A stretch of DNA of 64,000 nt from Vicugna vicugna (taxonomy: Eukaryota), in NCBI GenBank assembly GCA_013265495.1, contig MU057521.1, forward strand, positions 1,314,335 through 1,378,334. Direction: 5' to 3'. The notes under the pieces are model-generated. The model ran no database searches and had not been told where the DNA came from. It saw only the letters and a list, made by a program, of their open reading frames with translations. A program made the position numbers and the translations under genes. This document shows positions 20,480-63,319 of this stretch, in pieces (position 1 is the first letter of the stretch; every line of letters begins with the position of its first letter).

Positions 20480-21300
20480 CGTGGTGACAGTAACACAAAG
20501 GTGGGAGGGGAAGATGGAAATATGCTGTTCTAAGGTCCTTACAATATACCTGAAGTGTCAGAATTTTATCTGAAGGTAGACTGTGATGTCATAGATGCAT
20601 GTTGTAAACCAAGAGCTAAACAAAGCAAGAGATACATAAAATAAGCTAACAATAGAGAAAAAAAAAGAATCCTAAAAATACTCAAAACATCCAAAGGAAG
20701 GTAAGAAAAGGGAAAAAGGAGCAAAGATGGAACAAATAGAAAACAAATAGCAAAGTTCACCATATCTATAATCACATTAAATGTGAATGGCCTAAACACT
20801 TCAATCAAGAAATAGAGATTGTCACACTGGATAAAATGAAAAAGCAAGACCCAACCATATGCTGTCACTTTATATAGACATAGATAAATTAAAATCGCAG
20901 CATTAGATACACCATGTAATTGCTATTCATAAGAAAAGTGAAGTAGCTATACAACTAATATCAAAGGCTCCGGAAGACAGAATTTAACCACTGATCAGGG
21001 AGGACATGTAATAATGATAAAAAGGTCAATTCAGCAGAGACATAATAATCCTAAATGTTTATGCCTCTCATCAGAGATTCAAACACGTAGGGGGGAAAAT
21101 CCTGACGGAACTTGAAAGGAAAAACAAAGCCACAGTTTTTGCTGGAAATCTTCACAACCTTCTCACAAGGAGACAAAATCACTGACTATTTTAACCAACT
21201 TGACCTAACTGACATTTACAAAACACTTCAACCAGCAACAGTGAAATACAGTTTTTTCGAGTGCACATGGAATATTCATGAATATACAGCACATGCGGGG
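20480..21300 (+). mobile_element. Old L1 fragment (inter-ORF and ORF2 endonuclease region)
   Basis: ataatcacattaaatgtgaatggcctaaac, caagacccaaccatatgctgt, NQLDLTDIYKTLQP. Confidence 0.8.
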
Positions 21301-21389
21301 CCAAAAGTAAGGGATGTTGATGGCTCTGGAACGCTAGGAATTCAAACTATATTCTACTGACAAGAAACAAGCGTTTTCACTCAAAAAGT

Positions 21390-22760
21390 TATCTATGCGA
21401 AGGCTGGGCAGACGCGTGCCCCGGGCACCACCTGGAAGTGCGGCGCGGGGCGGAGACAGCGGCGGCCGGCAGCCGGGGGGAGGCCGGAGGAAGTGTCTGC
21501 TGACCGGAAAAGTGGACGAGGACACTGCGAAGCGTGCCGGACGCTAGAGTGGGTGATCCTTTCACTGTTGTCCAGGGAACCCCCAGTGGAGATCCTCGCC
21601 TCGTTAACTCCCAGACGCGGGCACCCACTTTGGGAGGCCCGGCCTGGATGCCTGACAGACGAGTCGAGGCGGGCGTGGGGCCGGGCCAGGCCGCCGGGCG
21701 GCTGTCCTTCCCCGGGCATCCGGCCCCCGAGTCCCGGGAAGCAGGCCAGCCACGTCTGCGACCGTGAAAGGCACCCTAAGGCAGGTCGCAGGCAAACCTG
21801 CGCTCGAGGGCGCCCAGCGGGGCAGAGGACGCGGGCGGCGGGCACGGAGAGCACCTCAGCTCCCACCCTGTCCCTCTCTGCACGCGAGGGAAGGAGACGT
21901 CGCGCCCCGCGCTCGGGCCCCATCTGGCGGGCGCGGCGGGAAGGGGGGAGCCGCCCGGGCGGGGACAGGTGCCGGGGCGGGGCGCCGCGGGGCGGGGCGC
22001 GACGGCGGGGCGGGCACTGGCCCCGCGCGCCCGGCGGCGCCGCCGCCCGCTGCCCGCGCTGCTCGCGCTCTGCACGCTGCTCGGCCTGCTGCAGGTAAGG
22101 AGGTCGCCGGGCACCCTCTGCCCCCGCCGCCTCGCGGGCGCCTTCCCCGCCCGTCGCTGCGCTCCTCGGAGGGCCGCCCGGGCTCCCGCTCCCTGCGCCC
22201 GACGCCTCCACGGGAGCTGGGAAAGGACGGGGCGCGGCGGCTGCCAGACGTCCTGAGACCTGGACGGAGAAGCAGGAGCTGAAGATTTGAGGGCGGGGAG
22301 GGCGGAAAGCTGCGGCGCTGCGAGTTGGGCGGTGGAAGGTGGAAAAGGGCGAGTGGAGGGGTCTTAGGGCGCAGAAGAGGGGGTTGCGGGACCCCAACAC
22401 CCAGACACTGGCGCTTACAAAAGTCCCACATAGTAGCAGGCTTTGGTGGTATCGTTAATTCTCACATTTCTGGAGCACCTACTAGGTGCCCCCTCAGAGT
22501 AGCCGCTGCGGACACAGCGGCGTAGACACAGCCCCTTCCCCTGCGAACAGAAAAAGCCAGGGAAAAATTGAGTCGCAGACAATACCCGTACTAAGTAACC
22601 ATCGTAAATGCGATGTCTCCTTTCGGGCCATTTTGAGTTCCCCAGGAGCTCGCCGTAACTTGGGCTTGTAACTGGGCTTCGCAACTTTTCCCCAACTGTT
22701 TCGTTGGTTGTCTGAAGACTAGAGCGATCATCGCCTCGTGGGGATGTCTAGAGCGTGTAT
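21390..22760. promoter_or_regulatory. TNFRSF11A: CpG island / TATA-less promoter of TNFRSF11A
   Basis: Very high GC and CpG density; several GGGCGG Sp1 boxes at 21957-22014; ETS-type GGAAGTG cores near 21434 and 21489; overlaps exon 1. Confidence 0.9.
22017..22094 (+). CDS. TNFRSF11A: TNFRSF11A (RANK) exon 1 coding part, signal peptide; first codon is CTG, not ATG
   Basis: Reads (L)APRARRRRRPLPALLALCTLLGLLQ, then donor CAG|gtaagg, phase 0. Matches the RANK signal peptide MAPRARRRR...LQ. Confidence 0.88.
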
Positions 22761-44229: not shown

Positions 44230-44311
44230 GCGACTTTCCAGATCACTCCCCCGTGTGCCAGTGAGAGGCATTACGAGCATCTTGGACGATGCTGCAGCAA
44301 ATGTGAACCGG
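44230..44311 (+). CDS. TNFRSF11A: TNFRSF11A exon 2 (CRD1)
   Basis: tttctctttag|[31 protein letters not shown]; donor G|gtttgt; 82 nt. Confidence 0.95.
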
Positions 44312-45483: not shown

Positions 45484-45609
45484 GAAAATACATGTCTTCC
45501 AAATGCACCGCTACCTCTGGGAGCGTCTGTCTGCCCTGTGGCCCAGATGAATACCTGGACACCTGGAATGAGGAAGATAAATGCTTGCTACACAAAGTGT
45601 GTGATACAG
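45484..45609 (+). CDS. TNFRSF11A: TNFRSF11A exon 3 (CRD1-2)
   Basis: ctgctttaag|[44 protein letters not shown]; donor G|gtgagt; 126 nt. Confidence 0.97.
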
Positions 45610-45809
45610 GTGAGTCAGCCATGCATCAGCGGGAAGTGTGGATAAAGGACAGTTTCAGATACAGCAGTGCTGTCTCTTTGGAGGCCCATAGGAAGGCATG
45701 TGGACCACAGACCCCCATAAGGATATGCTTCAGACCCCAGAAGCATTGTGTTAAAATTCTTCATGTGGGACTGCTCTCCTGGAATATTTTCGTGTTTAGT
45801 CCTGGAACA

Positions 45810-48794: not shown

Positions 48795-49258
48795 TGTGTG
48801 TGAGCGTTTACCTCTATGCCACAAAAACTGGAAAGAAAGAGCCAGGAGATTTGGAATAAGGAGAGAGAGCTTTGCTGTGTGTTGTGAGAAAAGACACAAC
48901 TGTGTTATTCTAAGTATCGGGGGAGAGATTAATTCCCAAGCGTGTCCCCAGGCCCAACCTCCTGACTTTGACCCCTAATCTGATTACACAGGGACCCCTG
49001 TTTTCAGGACTCTGAATTATACTATGGCCCAGCAGGATCCCAAGATGAATCCCCAATCTCCAAAAACCCTATTCTCTTAGGTCCAATCTAACATTGCTGT
49101 TGAGAATGTTTATCACATTTGAATTTACTAAAAATCCAGACTGTGAAGTTGACTATTTTGCATCAGCCAAAATAGTCAAAGATCATAAACTCCTGAGGCC
49201 CTAATCCTCCCACTAACATGAAAACTGACTTTTAAAAAACCCCACAGGATTCGTTATT

Positions 49259-49299
<41 letters not shown>

Positions 49300-49357
49300 A
49301 AGAAGAAAAGGAAGGAAGGAAGGAAGGAAGGAAGGAAGGAAGGAAGGAAGGAAGGAA

Positions 49358-49439
<82 letters not shown>

Positions 49440-49485
49440 AGAAAGAAAAGGGAAGAAAAAAGAAAAGAAAAGAAAGAGAAAGCAA
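49259..49485. repeat. Compound microsatellite (AG)n(ACAG)n(GGAA)n(AGAA)n
   Basis: Seen directly. Confidence 0.97.
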
Positions 49486-49711
49486 AGCCCACTGGGATGT
49501 TTTAGTGCCAGCTCAAAGTGTGTGTGGGTGAGTGGGAACTGGAGAGTTCCTGCATCCAGGGGTCCTGCCTGACTCATCCGTCCACGAAGCTGCGCGGGCG
49601 CTGCACTGGGGCGGTTTGGGGCCAGGAGGGTCAGAGTTGGTGGCACGAGGCGGAAGATGTGCATCCACACTGCCCCCCGCTGCCTCGCCGCCCTGTCTCT
49701 CTCTCCCGCAG

Positions 49712-49855
49712 GCAAGGCCCTGGTGGCGGTGGAGCCCGGCAACCGGACGGCCCCGCGGCGCTGCGCCTGCACGGCCGGGTACCACTGGAGCGAGGACTGC
49801 CACTGCTGCCGCCGCAACAGCAAGTGCGCGCCCGGCTTCGGCGCCCGGGATCCGG
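49712..49855 (+). CDS. TNFRSF11A: TNFRSF11A exon 4 (CRD2-3)
   Basis: ctctcccgcag|[49 protein letters not shown]; donor G|gtacgg; 144 nt; contains NRT sequon. Confidence 0.97.
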
Positions 49856-52440: not shown

Positions 52441-52893
52441 ACCAAGCAGTTTCCTTTAGAAGCAGTGAACAGGCTGCCATTCTCTGTAGACAAAGGCTGA
52501 TATAATCCCCAAAGGGAAGAACAGACAGGTGCTTGGTTAAAACAAATCAGACAGCAGGTTTCATGGCCAGGAAACAAAGCATCAGTGACCAGGACGGTGG
52601 CTCTGACCAGCAAAGGGTCCAGATCAGAGAACTGGACCTAATTCACATCTGGCATTTGCACTTTGATACCAGTTACCCTTCTGGGCACAGTGCTGTCACC
52701 TGCTGTGGGATCTCAGGTCTCCGAAGCCTATGGGGGCTGAAGCCATCAGCTGCAGGTGGCAAGGGTGGGAAGGGGGAGGCAAGGGGCAGGGGGGCAGCAC
52801 CTGATTGCTGGTCCTGTGGACCATCATCCTGGCCGATCTCTAAGTGTCCTCGTTTGTCTTGTGTGTTCTTTTGTCCGTTTGTCTTTTGGACAG

Positions 52894-52987
52894 TGCAGCT
52901 CAACAAAGACACGATGTGCGAACCCTGCCTCATGGGCTACTTCTCTGACACCTTTTCCTCCACAGAGAAGTGCAAACCCTGGACCAA
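52894..52987 (+). CDS. TNFRSF11A: TNFRSF11A exon 5 (CRD3-4)
   Basis: ttttggacag|[33 protein letters not shown](N); donor AA|gtaagt; 94 nt. Confidence 0.97.
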
Positions 52988-53685: not shown

Positions 53686-54151
53686 TGGTTGCCTGCTTGT
53701 GGTTGAATACTAATAATCAACGTCATGATTCTTTCATTCCCCGATATATAAATTCTCGTTAAATATTTATTTTCTGATCGACTTATCCAACTTTTATTTT
53801 CAAAAGGTTTTCCGTGTTTTCAGCTTCAAAAGAATATTCGTCCAAAGTTTATCAGTTAGCCGCAGTAATTGAACTTGGAATTGCCTTCACTGAAGACACC
53901 AGTCTACCCTCTTTCAGACCATGCTCTCAGAGTAGTCTTAGAGAGCACTGGTAGCAGTTACTTTTGTTTATTTATTTGTCCACCTTAATGATGTGTGGAT
54001 AGGCACTGGGGATTCAAACATCCATGAAGAGTTAAGTTCCTCTCCCGAACGAGCTAGCAATCTAGTGGGGTAGCGCATTTTGTAGCTTAAAAAAAAAACC
54101 CAAAAGATAAGAATATAAAACCAAAGCACTTACTTACCTTTCCCCTCACAG

Positions 54152-54246
54152 CTGCACCATTCTTGGAGAGAAGGAAGCACATCATGGGACCAAGAAATCA
54201 GATGTGGTTTGTAGTTCTTCTCTGCCATCTGCAAAACCACCAAAAG
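54152..54246 (+). CDS. TNFRSF11A: TNFRSF11A exon 6 (CRD4 and stalk)
   Basis: tcccctcacag|C; (N)[31 protein letters not shown]; donor G|gtatgt; 95 nt. Confidence 0.95.
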
Positions 54247-55307
54247 GTATGTTTCATAGAGCAGGTTGGTAAGTAGATGTGCCCCAGTCTAGTAAGTTCT
54301 TCTAGATTTCTCCCAAATTGCAGGCTGTGTCGGGCGGGGTCCATCTTTCCCTTTTCATCTCATCCTATCTATGGTCAGCTCAGTATTTCATTTTTATCAG
54401 TATTTTAATTCCAGATGTGTTGTTTACTTGATAATTTTCTACTCTGGAATGGATAACTAGTCACTTACTCATATATACAAAGAAAGAAAAAGAACATGGG
54501 GCTGCAAACATAAATTAAAATGTCCAAATATGGTAGGGTGGTGGCGGGCACAGTAGGGTATCTTTGGCAGATTCTGGTCACCAACCAGAGTTAGCAACTT
54601 ATTTAGAATATAGATATCATTATTTATGGAACATTTTGTTGATCAAATTAATCTTAAGGACAGTTTCAAAGATTGGCAGGAAGTTGACCATTAATGGTGG
54701 ATGCTGGTTATCCAGGTGAGTGTGGAGGTGGGTCCAGGTATCACAGCACAGGAGGAGCATAAGTGGCAAGAAGACCTTTCTAATGAGGCAAGAGAACCTG
54801 GGCCACAGAGTAATAGCGTGAATGAACTTGGACTAAGAAAATCGAGGGTTTAGTTTTGACAGTTTGGGAAACAGGAAAACAAAAACATCAAAGAGTTCTG
54901 GATAAGGGGCTCCACAGTCAGAGCAGCGTTTTTAAAAGACTGTTACGAAGAAGGAGCCCATCCTCCTGGAGAGGTTGCAGCGTTCTGCAGGTAAGCAAAG
55001 AGGGAACTGGATGGTGTGGTAAACCTGCCTGGATACTACTAAAGTAGGAGCATTTAAAGACGGCCCTGGGCTGACCTCCCTCAGGGCACGACGCTGACGG
55101 GCAGGACCAGCCACGTGGTGGGTTTCACCCTTCCCAGGGGGAGCTCTCTGGGACACACGTACAGTCAGGGTCGGGAACTTCCAACTTCTCTTCCTCCGCA
55201 CCAACATCCTTGATTCTGGGGTCTGGTTGAAAGCGTTTTGCTTTCAAATTTAGAGAGTAAAAATAAACGATCTTTAATGCTGTTTTTCTCATTTTCTTCT
55301 GACACAG

Positions 55308-55421
55308 AACCCCAGACTTACTTGCCCAGTTTAATTATCCTGCTCCTCTTCATCTCTGTGGCGTTAGTTGCTGCCGTCATCTTCGGTGTTTACTACAGGA
55401 GAGAAGGGAAAGCACTAACAG
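55308..55421 (+). CDS. TNFRSF11A: TNFRSF11A exon 7 (transmembrane domain)
   Basis: tctgacacag|[40 protein letters not shown]; donor G|gtattg; 114 nt. Confidence 0.96.
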
Positions 55422-57690: not shown

Positions 57691-58371
57691 TCTAGTCTTT
57701 ACAGAGACTTCAACATCAAATATCCAATGGAGGTGGGATAAAATTTTGTCTTTGTATTATATACATTAATAGATATTTTTTAATTCATAGATTTAATTTT
57801 TAAGTTTCATCACTTCTATTTTTAAAAGTTAAGGAAGAGGTACTTTGTGTATGTCACAGAACATCGTCTTCTTTCTTCTGAGAAGCAGGGGGGTACAGTG
57901 GAAAAGGATTTGGGGCCCACTGGAACTCAGTGGGGTCTGACACAGCCTTCCAGCGTGCACTTTTATTGTACATATGTTTGCACTAGTTTACTACAAAATC
58001 AGTCTCCTAGACCCGTGTCACCTTTGTTCCCCTATAATACCTAGCCACGTCCCTCATAGTCAAAGAAGATTTGCTGAGGGCAGCTCTGACAGCCTTCACC
58101 GTGTGCCCAGAGGTATTCGATGGAACGGCAGGGGACCATATTTTGCTTTACATAGATCAGAAAGCTCTGTTTTTGAAAGGAGGGGCAAGATGCCTTCATT
58201 GCCTTTAAATTGGTTGATTTTTCTTTTAAATGTTTTCACTCTCAGGAACTCTCAAAGATTTGCAGATGGCTGTGTTTAAAGACAATATTGAACTGACATA
58301 GTGGGCAATAATACTGAATTAGAAATAGGAGATAATATTATGAGGCCTTTATCCTTACTTTGTTTTTCTAG

Positions 58372-58424
58372 CTAATTTGTGGCACTGGGTCAACGAGGCT
58401 TGCGGTCGCCTAAGTGGAAATAAG
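58372..58424 (+). CDS. TNFRSF11A: TNFRSF11A exon 8
   Basis: tttttctag|CT; ANLWHWVNEACGRLSGNK; donor AAG|gtaaat; 53 nt. Confidence 0.96.
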
Positions 58425-59660: not shown

Positions 59661-59723
59661 TAGCAGAACCATGTTCTAACAACACTTGTATTAATGCTCT
59701 GCCTTCTGAATTCAAATCAGCAG

Positions 59724-60480
59724 GAGTCCTCAGGCAACAATTTTAGCTGCACTCACGTGGAAGCCTCTAGTCAGCGTGAAATCTGTGAGAGTGTTTTACT
59801 GCTGACTCTGGAAGACAAGCGGTTTTCTGAAGATATGTGCTGTCCAGACGATGGTGGTGCCTGTGGAGGGGGTGGTCCCTGTGCCCAGGGAGAAGATACC
59901 AGGATGCTCACCTTGATCAGCGAGACTGAGGGGGACCCCTTCAGGCAGGTTCCCATGGAAGATGAATATATGGACAGGCCCTCCCAGGTCCCAGACGCTA
60001 TACTGTTACTCACTCAGCCTGGAGGCACCTCCACACCGCCTTTCCCTGAACCCCTGGAGGTGGGGGAAAATGACAGCTTGAGCCAGTGCTTCACTGGGAC
60101 AGAGAGCTTGATGGATTCTGAAAGCTGCCACTGCGCCCAGCCCCCGTGCAGGACTGATTGGATTCCTGCGTCCTCTGAAAAGTACTTGCAAAAAGAAGTG
60201 GAGGGTGGCAATTGCCCCCACTGGGCAGCCAGCTCCAGCTCTGCAGATGGCTGTGCGGGCTGCGGGAACCCTGCTAGGGAGGACCGGGAACCCCTGATGG
60301 GTTTCCCCCAAAGTGGACCCTTGCCCCAGTGCGCCTACGGCTTGGGCCTTCCACCCAAAGCGGCTGACGGGGCAGAGACAGGAGGCCAGCCCGTGGACGG
60401 GGCTGATGTAAGGCTTCCCGGCTGGACGAGGGGAGGCCCTGGGTCTGGAAGCCCCTCCACTGACCAGCCACCTGCATCTG
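59724..60480 (+). CDS. TNFRSF11A: TNFRSF11A exon 9 (cytoplasmic tail with TRAF6-binding motifs)
   Basis: tcagcag|GAG; ESSGNN...[11 protein letters not shown]...[20 protein letters not shown]...QPPASG; donor G|gtaagt; 757 nt; lies inside ORF 59694..60488. Confidence 0.96.
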
Positions 60481-63319
60481 GTAAGTGACTCTGCTGGTTT
60501 CTTCTGAGCAAAAATGCCTGGTCTTTGTGCAGCGCCTGGGGGCAAGTGTAATACGCCATTCAGGGAAGACAGAAGCTAACGTGGGGAAAGTTCAGCTCCA
60601 GCGTTTTCCCCTGATGAGCCTCTTCACTGGGTGGGTTTTGATTCAGTCCACGTGTCGGGTTTGTGGGCCATACCCCTGGGACTCTCCCTTCGTTTATCCG
60701 TGTCCTATGCCCTTTTGTGTTCAGGCTTCTCACAATGGGGTTAGACTTTAACTCCCAGCCTTGATCCCTGAAGACAGTGTCAGGATTGACCTCAGGACTG
60801 GCTGAAGTCCAAGTGTTCCCTTAGATTTCTGGTTTTGGGTTTGTTTTTAAAGCAATCTAGGCCTCAAATCTCCCCCCAAAAAACTCTTTAACAAATTTCA
60901 GAATAAACAAAATTGCTTAGTTAATCCTTGCTTAATTAATTAATATTTATTGAGAGGAGCTTGTTGATTCTAGGCCAAGATAATGATGCAGTGAGCTGTC
61001 CTGTAATACATTATGTGAGAAGCATCTTTTATCACCACTGCATATATTTATGGAACCAGGAGGATAATTTTACAATTTAAAATCATTATAGAGATTTATC
61101 GTTGCACCACTGCTTGAGTATGGCTAGCCCACAAATTGTAATATTATAACTCTTTTCTGTGAAGGTAAAACATCCTGTTTTATTATGTAGTTATAAGGAA
61201 CTTTGCCACTGATGGTGCGGGCTTCCTCTGGCTCTGGAGATTATTTGCAGTATGTGTGGGGGGTCGGGGATCAGGAATCTCTTCAAAAATCTTCTGAAAG
61301 CTTATAGACGCTCTACAGAAAACCGAATCTATGAATATATAACTATTTAAGGGGATTCGCAGAATCCTCCCAGCCTCCAAAAAAACATGGACCACCTTTA
61401 TCCTGGGATGCATTTTGCTTTTTCTTTCCTGCCTCTTTAAACTGCAAGCAGGTCTAGGTGCTGGTCTTTGAATTATGTTACATCTCTGAGGCAGCTCCAT
61501 TGGGCCCTAAACAGAGTCTGTTTTGCCTCATGCTGATGCTGGCTCCTGGCTTATTTGGTAGAAAATGTCCTTGAATCTGTTTTCCAAGCTTTGTGGTTTT
61601 CTGCACACAGATTCACTGATGTGTCAAGTCTGTATCAATTCTCAGTCAAACTGAAAGGAGGAGATAGGCTCGGGGATATTTTTCAAAGAACTGATGTGTT
61701 TATTCTTCCAAAGACCTCAACTTTTTTTTTTCTTTTTTTAAGATTTTAAGGAGTTTCCATGTCTAAAAGTTTGGCTCTGTCATTCGTTTGTACTGTTCTG
61801 TCTCTTTTCTAGAGGTTACTTTTCCTCCTATTGGTTGCAGACACACACAGAACACGAATGTTTGGGGCTGTGGGGAGTGGGAAGGCGGTGTGGCAGTGGC
61901 CGTGTCTTGTGACACTGCCAGGGGACAGACCGGTTTTTCCGTGGCTGACATCAGGAAGGTGACATTTGCCGCTGTGTGAAAATCAGCAGCAGTTCTGGGA
62001 AGAACAGGGTTAGCCAAATTGAAAGAGATCATTTTTCCTTAGTGTCATGAAAGCAAGAAGTCTGGTCTGAGCTCTCCTGCAAGGAGTTCAAGCAGGGCCC
62101 ATGTCTGCTTTCCTTTATCCTTTATTTCTCCAGTGCTGAACGTCTAGGCCTGGAGAAAAGAAAAAAAAAAAAAAAAGTGTGTCATCAACTAAGCGGTGTT
62201 AATTTGCAAAAAGTTTACACTGCTTTTTCTGTCTTCCTCTGATGCTCAGCCACATAAAACATCCGTTGAGAGTCTGCTCGCGGACAGACGCCAGCAAGGG
62301 AACTGGATTCAGGCGAAGCAGCAGCCAGATTGATTTTTGAGGCTGTGCTGTTCTCTCCAGAATTACTTCTACGTGAACCAGCCTTCTGGTTCCTGGTCAG
62401 CATAGTACTTTCTCATTATTCTTTTTTGTGAAGTGCCATAATTTATGTTCTATAAAACGTGTGAAAGAGGATGGAGCTGGGGTGAAAGTTAAAGAGTAGG
62501 GGATGGGGTTAATCCTGTGTGATCTAAAAGCCACTGTGCTCTCAGGACTTGAGGGAGGTGGCCTTTTTATTGGCTTTTGGATTTTTGTATGTGAGTATTT
62601 AAAAAAAAGAAAAAGAAAACTTACAACCAAATCAAGTGGTTTCTGCAGAAATGACATGGTTGGACACTTCCCCAGTAGGGAAAATTATCTCCTTTGCACC
62701 CAACTTCCTTTTGAAGAGAATGATAGTTCTTCAAAGGGCTCCACAAGTGTATCTTTCAAAATGAATACCCAGTGGTAAGTCTATTTTAGCAATGTAACAG
62801 CTCTTAAAGGACAGGGAGGATTATCAGCAAAAACCAGTGAAGGGGGAAAACATACTTGCGGTTTTGTCTTGCGTTAACCATGTTTTAATTTACGTCTTAA
62901 ATTATCATCCTGATGACATGATGGTGGTTACCTTACTTACAAGCCCTTTCACCTGGAGTTTGGAGAATTCTGTGTCTAGAAAGTTATTTCATGTGAAAGA
63001 AAGAACAACTTCTCATGATTAACGTGCCGCTAGTTGGCCAGTGACTTGCTTCAGGCTCCTGAGATCACTTAATTGGTTCAGATATTTCTGAGCTGGAGAG
63101 AGAGGTTTATTTGCAGGGCCCACAACAGTTCTTAATGAAAACAAGCTATGTGTTTTTCTGTCAGATCTTTATTGAGGGTCCACTGAGACAAGGAGATTCG
63201 GAAAAGCTTGGAAAACAAGTAGGGATTGGTGCGAGGGAGTGGGAATGGACAACACAAAAAGAATCAGTAATTTGAGAAAGTGAGGCCTTCCACGGCCCAC
63301 CCCCTCTAACGTGCACGCT

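Follow-up and report, generated by a model that had tools for sequence, protein, structure and literature searches.

Does the gene for RANK (TNFRSF11A) in this stretch of DNA lack its initiator ATG in the living animal, or is the codon that stands in its place a product of the assembly? RANK is needed for osteoclast formation, lymph-node development, and lactation. The stretch that we analysed (64 kb in all, referred to as the window) holds exons 1-9 of the gene on the + strand, and at the initiator position (22017-22019, + strand), where orthologues encode Met, direct reading of the sequence gives CTG in the context GGCA-CTG-G. In RANK orthologues an initiator ATG heads the signal peptide; here it is headed by CTG. 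For a single-codon difference such as this one, the question is whether the base call is true, not whether the change could have arisen by chance.

We used the RefSeq alpaca RANK protein XP_072808308.1 (628 residues; P0001) as the reference and compared it with the genome by tblastn. An earlier note, made from the letters of the window alone, had identified the gene as RANK and assigned its reading frame, and the tblastn alignments bore out both. The coding part of exon 1 (22017..22094, + strand) runs CTG GCC CCG CGC GCC CGG CGG CGC CGC CGC CCG CTG CCC ... CTG CTG CAG, then gtaagg, which places a GTAAGG donor at 22095. It encodes the signal peptide LAPRARRRRRPLPALLALCTLLGLLQ, in which 25 of the 26 residues are those of P0001. 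Exon 2 lies at 44230..44311 and exon 3 at 45484..45611 (both on the + strand, placed by tblastn), and the splice sites of exons 1-3, read directly, are GT/AG. Exons 4-9 follow on the + strand at 49711-49854, 52893-52985, 54150-54245, 55307-55420, 58371-58424, and 59721-60485, which are approximate tblastn limits, and all of them are identical to P0001. Exon 10, likewise identical, is found on the same scaffold 5 kb past the window (G000:C317:1383360-1383719). A long purine-rich microsatellite (GAAG/GGAA-type, reading KERKKERKK... on one strand) occupies 49229-49572 of intron 3, adjoining exon 4 on its upstream side.

Exon 1 has a single match in the assembly, and the gene is a single-copy RANK of ten exons. 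P0001 carries PF00020 and PF18278, and exons 2-10 are identical to it, so the RANK domains are present in the gene studied here. At E ≤ 1e-10 we found 128 homologues, and those with a source name are mostly TNFRSF11A. We saw no decay elsewhere in RANK, that is, in exons 2-10, and the identity of exons 2-9 to P0001 by tblastn agrees with the earlier description of these exons as intact.

The CTG stands in a frame that offers no other conventional start. Walking the RANK frame upstream from 22017, we reached a TAA (21777..21779, + strand) without passing an ATG, as the earlier note had described. Near-cognate codons in frame upstream of the CTG include ACG at 22002, GTG at 21969, and CTG at 21924. 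No ATG in any frame was found from 21649 to 22400, and across 21300-22400 the only ATGs, all frames considered, are at 21314, 21320, 21395, and 21648. The last of these opens a 43-codon reading frame in weak context (21648..21779, + strand), which ends at the same TAA that closes the RANK frame and would be an upstream open reading frame only in transcripts that start upstream of 21648. The bases that flank the CTG are G at -3 (22014) and G at +4 (22020), which upholds the strong Kozak-like context that had been claimed for it. Past the CTG, in the spliced exons 1-3, exon 2 supplies the first ATGs, at 44289 and 44301; these lie in frame 2, not in the RANK frame, and open reading frames of 5 codons and 1 codon, respectively (MLQQM and M, each followed by a stop). 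The next in-frame ATG is at 45492 in exon 3. It corresponds to Met57 and lies past the signal peptide, so the earlier statement that the next usable ATG skips the signal peptide holds on the spliced sequence.

The CTG is present in the assembly and is the only coding difference from the annotated alpaca protein. Across exons 1-10, 627 of the 628 codons agree with XP_072808308.1 and codon 1 is the sole exception; within exon 1 the only mismatch is M1 versus L, as expected from the earlier claim that CTG replaces the initiator ATG. Exon 9 is 100% identical to XP_072808308.1 and 97% identical to Camelus proteins. Alpaca and Camelus RANK differ at 9 of 628 residues, and at all nine the window agrees with alpaca, which identifies its source as a South American camelid.

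XP_072808308.1 is encoded on a contig of 38,006,940 bases, and the scaffold that contains the window (G000:C317) is one of the 12,405 pieces of its assembly. The possibility that this scaffold is itself the contig behind P0001 was ruled out by its length of 2,190,025 bases. Because the two contigs differ, two independent assemblies disagree at codon 1, a disagreement that we judged via the annotated protein, i.e., at the protein level and not the DNA level. We take the Met of the RefSeq protein to stand for a genomic ATG on the assumption that NCBI automatic models require ATG; a literature search for Gnomon models with a non-ATG start found no supporting publication.

Of the 12 proteins in the 90% cluster of P0001, five start MAPRARRRRR (alpaca isoforms X1-X3 and two Camelus sequences common to the dromedary and C. 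ferus records). Two superseded dromedary versions begin MAPAPGGAAARLP, also with an initial MAP, and the other five members have a Met57 start, have an upstream-exon start, or are older models. P0127 and P0123, from alpaca and Camelus, are models that begin at Met57. As annotated, Met is the camelid state at RANK codon 1. Since the alpaca and Camelus models start with M, CTG is not a general camelid feature, and at the protein level we found no conservation of a non-AUG start codon in these relatives.

The two superseded dromedary proteins (P0128 and P0130) bear on the reliability of this exon. They read MAPAPGGAAARLP where the current models read MAPRARRRRRPLP, and they carry MAPAPGGAAARLPALL versus MAPRARRRRRPLPALL in the current P0121 and P0122, a compensated -1/+1 frameshift inside exon 1. 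This pattern, as seen in the protein sequences, suggests that the same GC-rich exon had been misassembled at base level before. Of 120 RANK cluster representatives, 63 have an N-terminal M and agree with MAPRARRR in at least 5 of its 8 positions; the remaining 57 have other or truncated N-termini (for example, felid MEFGDSLF and rhinoceros MKVTFQ), which suggests that the GC-rich exon 1 of RANK is often missing or unusable in assemblies.

Protein collections also offered an indirect view of the DNA at this position. A search with the antisense 353-aa open reading frame of the window against 1.84 billion representatives returned a single match, P0179, whose 90% cluster has one member. P0179 (349 aa) comes from a Logan contig of 3855 nt from a distant mammal and is an antisense open reading frame over the RANK promoter, exon 1, and the intron 1 CpG island; extreme-GC DNA of this kind stays open in all six frames, and the gene call is spurious. 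In this antisense frame, P0179 reads ...GARGH and the window reads ...GARGQ, i.e., CAT (ATG) versus CAG (CTG). The ATG-started version of the antisense frame was not found in the protein collection by exact look-up. When the + strand reading frame across exon 1 was used as a DNA proxy in a protein search, it yielded 370 candidates, none of them significant. The N-terminal 95 residues of P0001 gave 47 matches among shorter proteins with no evident camelid exon 1 fragment; the Logan/ENA fragments among these 47 have at most 95% identity over about 40-44% of the query and were taken, by coverage, as exon 3 reading frames. Scanning metagenomes with a wobble-tolerant pattern of the exon 1 end and its donor gave 0 matches. 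Literature searches for TNFRSF11A with alpaca or camel found nothing on the camelid RANK start codon among the titles listed.

The CTG sits at the peak of a CpG island (21300..22500; GC 0.70, CpG observed/expected 0.89), where GC reaches 0.86 at 21900-22099. A cluster of GC boxes (21957..22013, + strand) has GGGCGG at 21957, 21975, 21990, and 22008 and GGGGCGGGG at 21974 and 21989. It stops 4 nt 5′ of the CTG, consistent with the earlier observation that the GC boxes abut the coding sequence, and three tandem CGGGGCGGG-type units lie immediately 5′ of the CTG. Across the island (21361-22461), all six frames are open for 158-353 codons, and continuity of a reading frame is therefore unusable for detecting frameshifts there. 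The predicted RNA fold of 21990-22094 (105 nt) has an energy of -66.8 kcal/mol and a z score of 0.30. This is no better than that of shuffled sequences, so we claim no specific start-promoting structure around the CTG. The window itself contains 0 runs of N; 160 kb sampled elsewhere on the scaffold include one N run of at least 4334 bases and another of 68.

We then compared 58 words sampled from 21800-22400 with sequencing runs. In 14 DNA-type runs (X1-X14, lamine whole-genome data from six studies) under five organism labels, 0.86-0.97 of the words are present, with 0.93-0.97 in X1-X3. None of these runs has all 58, and eight runs from five studies have a fraction of exactly 0.93; these fractions weakly hint that this assembly differs from the runs at one or two sites of its own. 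The same-sample runs X21-X23 hold next to none of the 58 words. RNA runs hold 0.22-0.40 of them. One RNA run, X18, yielded a contig with a depth of 23.7 that joins 22066-22095 to exon 2, which confirms the donor; this spliced contig begins at 22066, 49 bases short of the start codon. Two unspliced contigs of low depth from the same run cover 21526-21691 and 21716-21866 (depth 3.3 and 2.5, respectively). Possible sources of these two contigs are transcription from further upstream, pre-mRNA, and carried-over DNA of a close relative. Compared with the window, they read T for C at 21798 and 21818 and have one additional G after position 21618.

On balance, these comparisons of sequences lead us to read the CTG as a base-level discrepancy of a draft scaffold in DNA of 86% GC and not as a real change, and CTG as the start of RANK is probably not a real feature. 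Several results favour an assembly error. The agreement of 627 of 628 codons with the protein of an independent alpaca assembly breaks at codon 1, the closest annotated genomes (alpaca and Camelus) give Met, and the dromedary models show prior miscalling of the same exon. The scaffold is a gapped draft and the site lies in 86% GC, while the rest of RANK shows no decay. The lack of any run with all 58 words, together with the recurring 0.93, adds weakly to this. At minimum, a single base explains the difference, through substitution of C for A or insertion of a C between the A and the TG. As an assembly flaw, it could have arisen by miscalling A as C, by calling an extra C within A-TG, or by a minor collapse of the tandem GC-box repeats. 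With an assembly error of any of these kinds, the animal would make a normal ATG-initiated RANK.

The locus resembles the errors and dropouts seen in extreme-GC first exons of vertebrate drafts in its GC content, its gapped scaffold, and the confinement of the difference to exon 1. Unlike the usual dropout, in which the exon is missing or frameshifted, a single base is hit, and it falls exactly on the initiator. Other results also argue against an error: ACTG is not a homopolymer and is not a typical site of indel errors, and other runs confirm at least 54 of the 58 words taken from the 601 bases around the site, so the neighbouring sequence is accurate in other respects. In addition, of the nine codons that differ from ATG by one base, CTG preserves initiation best, a bias that a random error would not have. 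We nevertheless judge an error at codon 1 somewhat more probable than an allele. The earlier note had likewise placed an assembly error first and a real allele or CUG initiation next, and the Met of the alpaca and Camelus models and the dromedary frameshift support the same ranking.

The principal alternative is that the sequenced animal truly carries the CTG as an allele, whether private, rare, or (if its taxon is other than that of the RefSeq alpaca) fixed in its taxon, and we regard this as a credible reading of the locus that falls short of an even chance. RANK deficiency is recessive, so an animal with one copy of such an allele would be healthy. Outside codon 1 the gene is intact, as would be expected for a recent or tolerated change, and a tolerated variant would tend to look like CTG, the near-cognate that best preserves initiation. 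The sequence around the codon is also permissive. The CTG is a near-cognate in good context (G at -3 and +4) with no in-frame AUG between it and the TAA at 21777, and because no AUG in any frame occurs from 21649 to the CTG, it would have no competitor if transcription starts downstream of 21648. Against a real allele, Met is the first residue of the RefSeq alpaca and Camelus models, so that CTG is not shared across camelids, none of the runs has all of the sampled words, and a change private to one assembly in DNA of 86% GC resembles an error. The leader, at -66.8 kcal/mol, could also hinder scanning, and it has no specific helper structure.

Published reporter measurements allow the candidate start codons to be ranked. 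In the complete reporter data of Diaz de Arce et al. (2018, NAR; PMC5778536), efficiencies are scaled to 100 for CACCAUGG, the strongest CUG sites come to about 50, and G at +4 raises CUG initiation about 10-fold. On this scale, the context of the CUG at 22017 (GGCACUGG) has an efficiency of 20.3, and that of the in-frame ACG at 22002..22004 (+ strand; CGCGACGG), 15 nt 5′ of the CTG, has an efficiency of 25, which is above that of the CUG (PMC5778536). The ACG may serve as an alternative near-cognate start, which would lengthen the protein by five residues. The two other in-frame codons score low in the same data, with 8.4 for the CTG at 21924 (CCAUCUGG) and 0.3 for the GTG at 21969 (ACAGGUGC) (PMC5778536).

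If the CTG were real, scanning ribosomes would start at the CUG at 22017 with Met-tRNAi and possibly also at the ACG at 22002. The product of 22017 would be native pre-RANK and that of 22002 would have a signal peptide with an n-region five residues longer; the yield would be reduced. Ribosomes that miss both codons would meet the two tiny out-of-frame reading frames of exon 2 and then Met57, whose product would lack the signal peptide and presumably be inert. The stronger proposal, that RANK is translated solely from the CUG at 22017 and the ACG at 22002 and that this camelid is a healthy natural hypomorph, we consider credible but less likely than not.

A precedent for the real-allele reading exists in human FNDC5, the irisin precursor, in which ATA replaces a conserved ATG and the signal peptide is retained. 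Raschke et al. (2013; PMC3770677) report confirmation of this ATA by genomic DNA, ESTs, and 5′ RACE. As in FNDC5, the change in RANK would be a lineage-restricted loss of the initiator in a type I membrane protein with a signal peptide, exon 1 has no other ATG, and the following in-frame ATG would leave the signal peptide out (PMC3770677). Unlike the experimentally confirmed ATA, the RANK CTG rests on one draft assembly. The two also differ in strength: the FNDC5 codon is a poor start, and its non-AUG initiation is reported to yield only 1% of full-length protein (PMC3770677), a figure that counts against a tolerated loss in RANK, whereas the context of the RANK CUG, at 20.3, is among the better near-cognates (PMC5778536). 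The CUG start of long c-Myc is similar in being a near-cognate with a purine at -3 and G at +4, used by scanning ribosomes with an efficiency that depends on context (PMC5778536). In c-Myc, however, the CUG adds an isoform beside the AUG product; in RANK it would be the sole route to functional protein. Known CUG starts are conserved across species, unlike the RANK CTG, which is contradicted by the closest annotated relatives.

The region is of consequence in human disease. Human disease alleles in TNFRSF11A exon 1 are signal-peptide duplications, and recessive loss-of-function alleles of the gene cause osteopetrosis. The change in the window resembles these alleles in affecting the same exon and signal peptide, a region that matters for RANK biogenesis. 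It differs from them in kind, since they are in-frame duplications or coding loss-of-function changes and the change seen here is at the start codon. A literature search for start-codon changes of TNFRSF11A in osteopetrosis, judged by title and abstract, found nothing relevant.

A larger lesion was proposed in the earlier note, namely the loss of tens of bases that included the proximal 5′ UTR and the A of the ATG; it could be a true deletion or a collapse of the GC-box repeats. This is a sub-case of an assembly error or of a real allele and not a separate outcome, and we consider it improbable. Alignment with P0179 requires a 13-codon gap in the window directly 5′ of the start codon, the whole upstream block is about 46 codons shorter in the window than in P0179, and the three tandem CGGGGCGGG-type units just before the CTG could drive slippage or collapse. 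However, P0179 is only 51-57% identical in a region of low complexity, which makes the placement of the gap unreliable, and such length differences are ordinary between mammalian CpG-island leaders. A one-base change accounts for the data equally well.

The earlier note had named an upstream exon with an in-frame ATG as a finding that would overturn its reading, and we looked for one in the window. The one candidate alternative first exon (PEKWTRTLRSVPDAR; 21504..21548, + strand) has a GTGGGT donor at 21549 and no in-frame ATG. It matches the N-termini of the Camelus models P0129 (PENWTRTLRSVPDAT/ATFQ) and P0126 (MPDAR/ATFQ), and the window codon aligned with the Met of P0126 is GTG (21534-21536). 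A true start in an upstream exon, spliced into or ahead of exon 1, is thus highly improbable even though P0126 and P0129 use the corresponding exon and RNA contigs cover 21526-21866, given that the candidate splices to exon 2 and bypasses the signal peptide, has GTG in place of the P0126 Met, and belongs to no full-length camelid model (all of which start at the exon 1 codon), that the exon 1 frame is shut by the TAA at 21777, and that the sole frame-keeping AG before the CTG (21967-21968) lacks a pyrimidine tract.

If the CTG is an assembly error, as we favour, one wrong base in an extreme-GC first exon can make an intact essential gene look start-less, and annotation pipelines would report a truncated RANK without its signal peptide. 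If the CTG is instead true, the loss of the only AUG would mean that the animal is the carrier of a disease allele, that it has a tolerated hypomorph, or that the gene depends on non-AUG initiation. It would then be a second FNDC5-like loss of a start codon in a signal-peptide protein, and it would inform both the dosage tolerance of RANK and near-cognate initiation.
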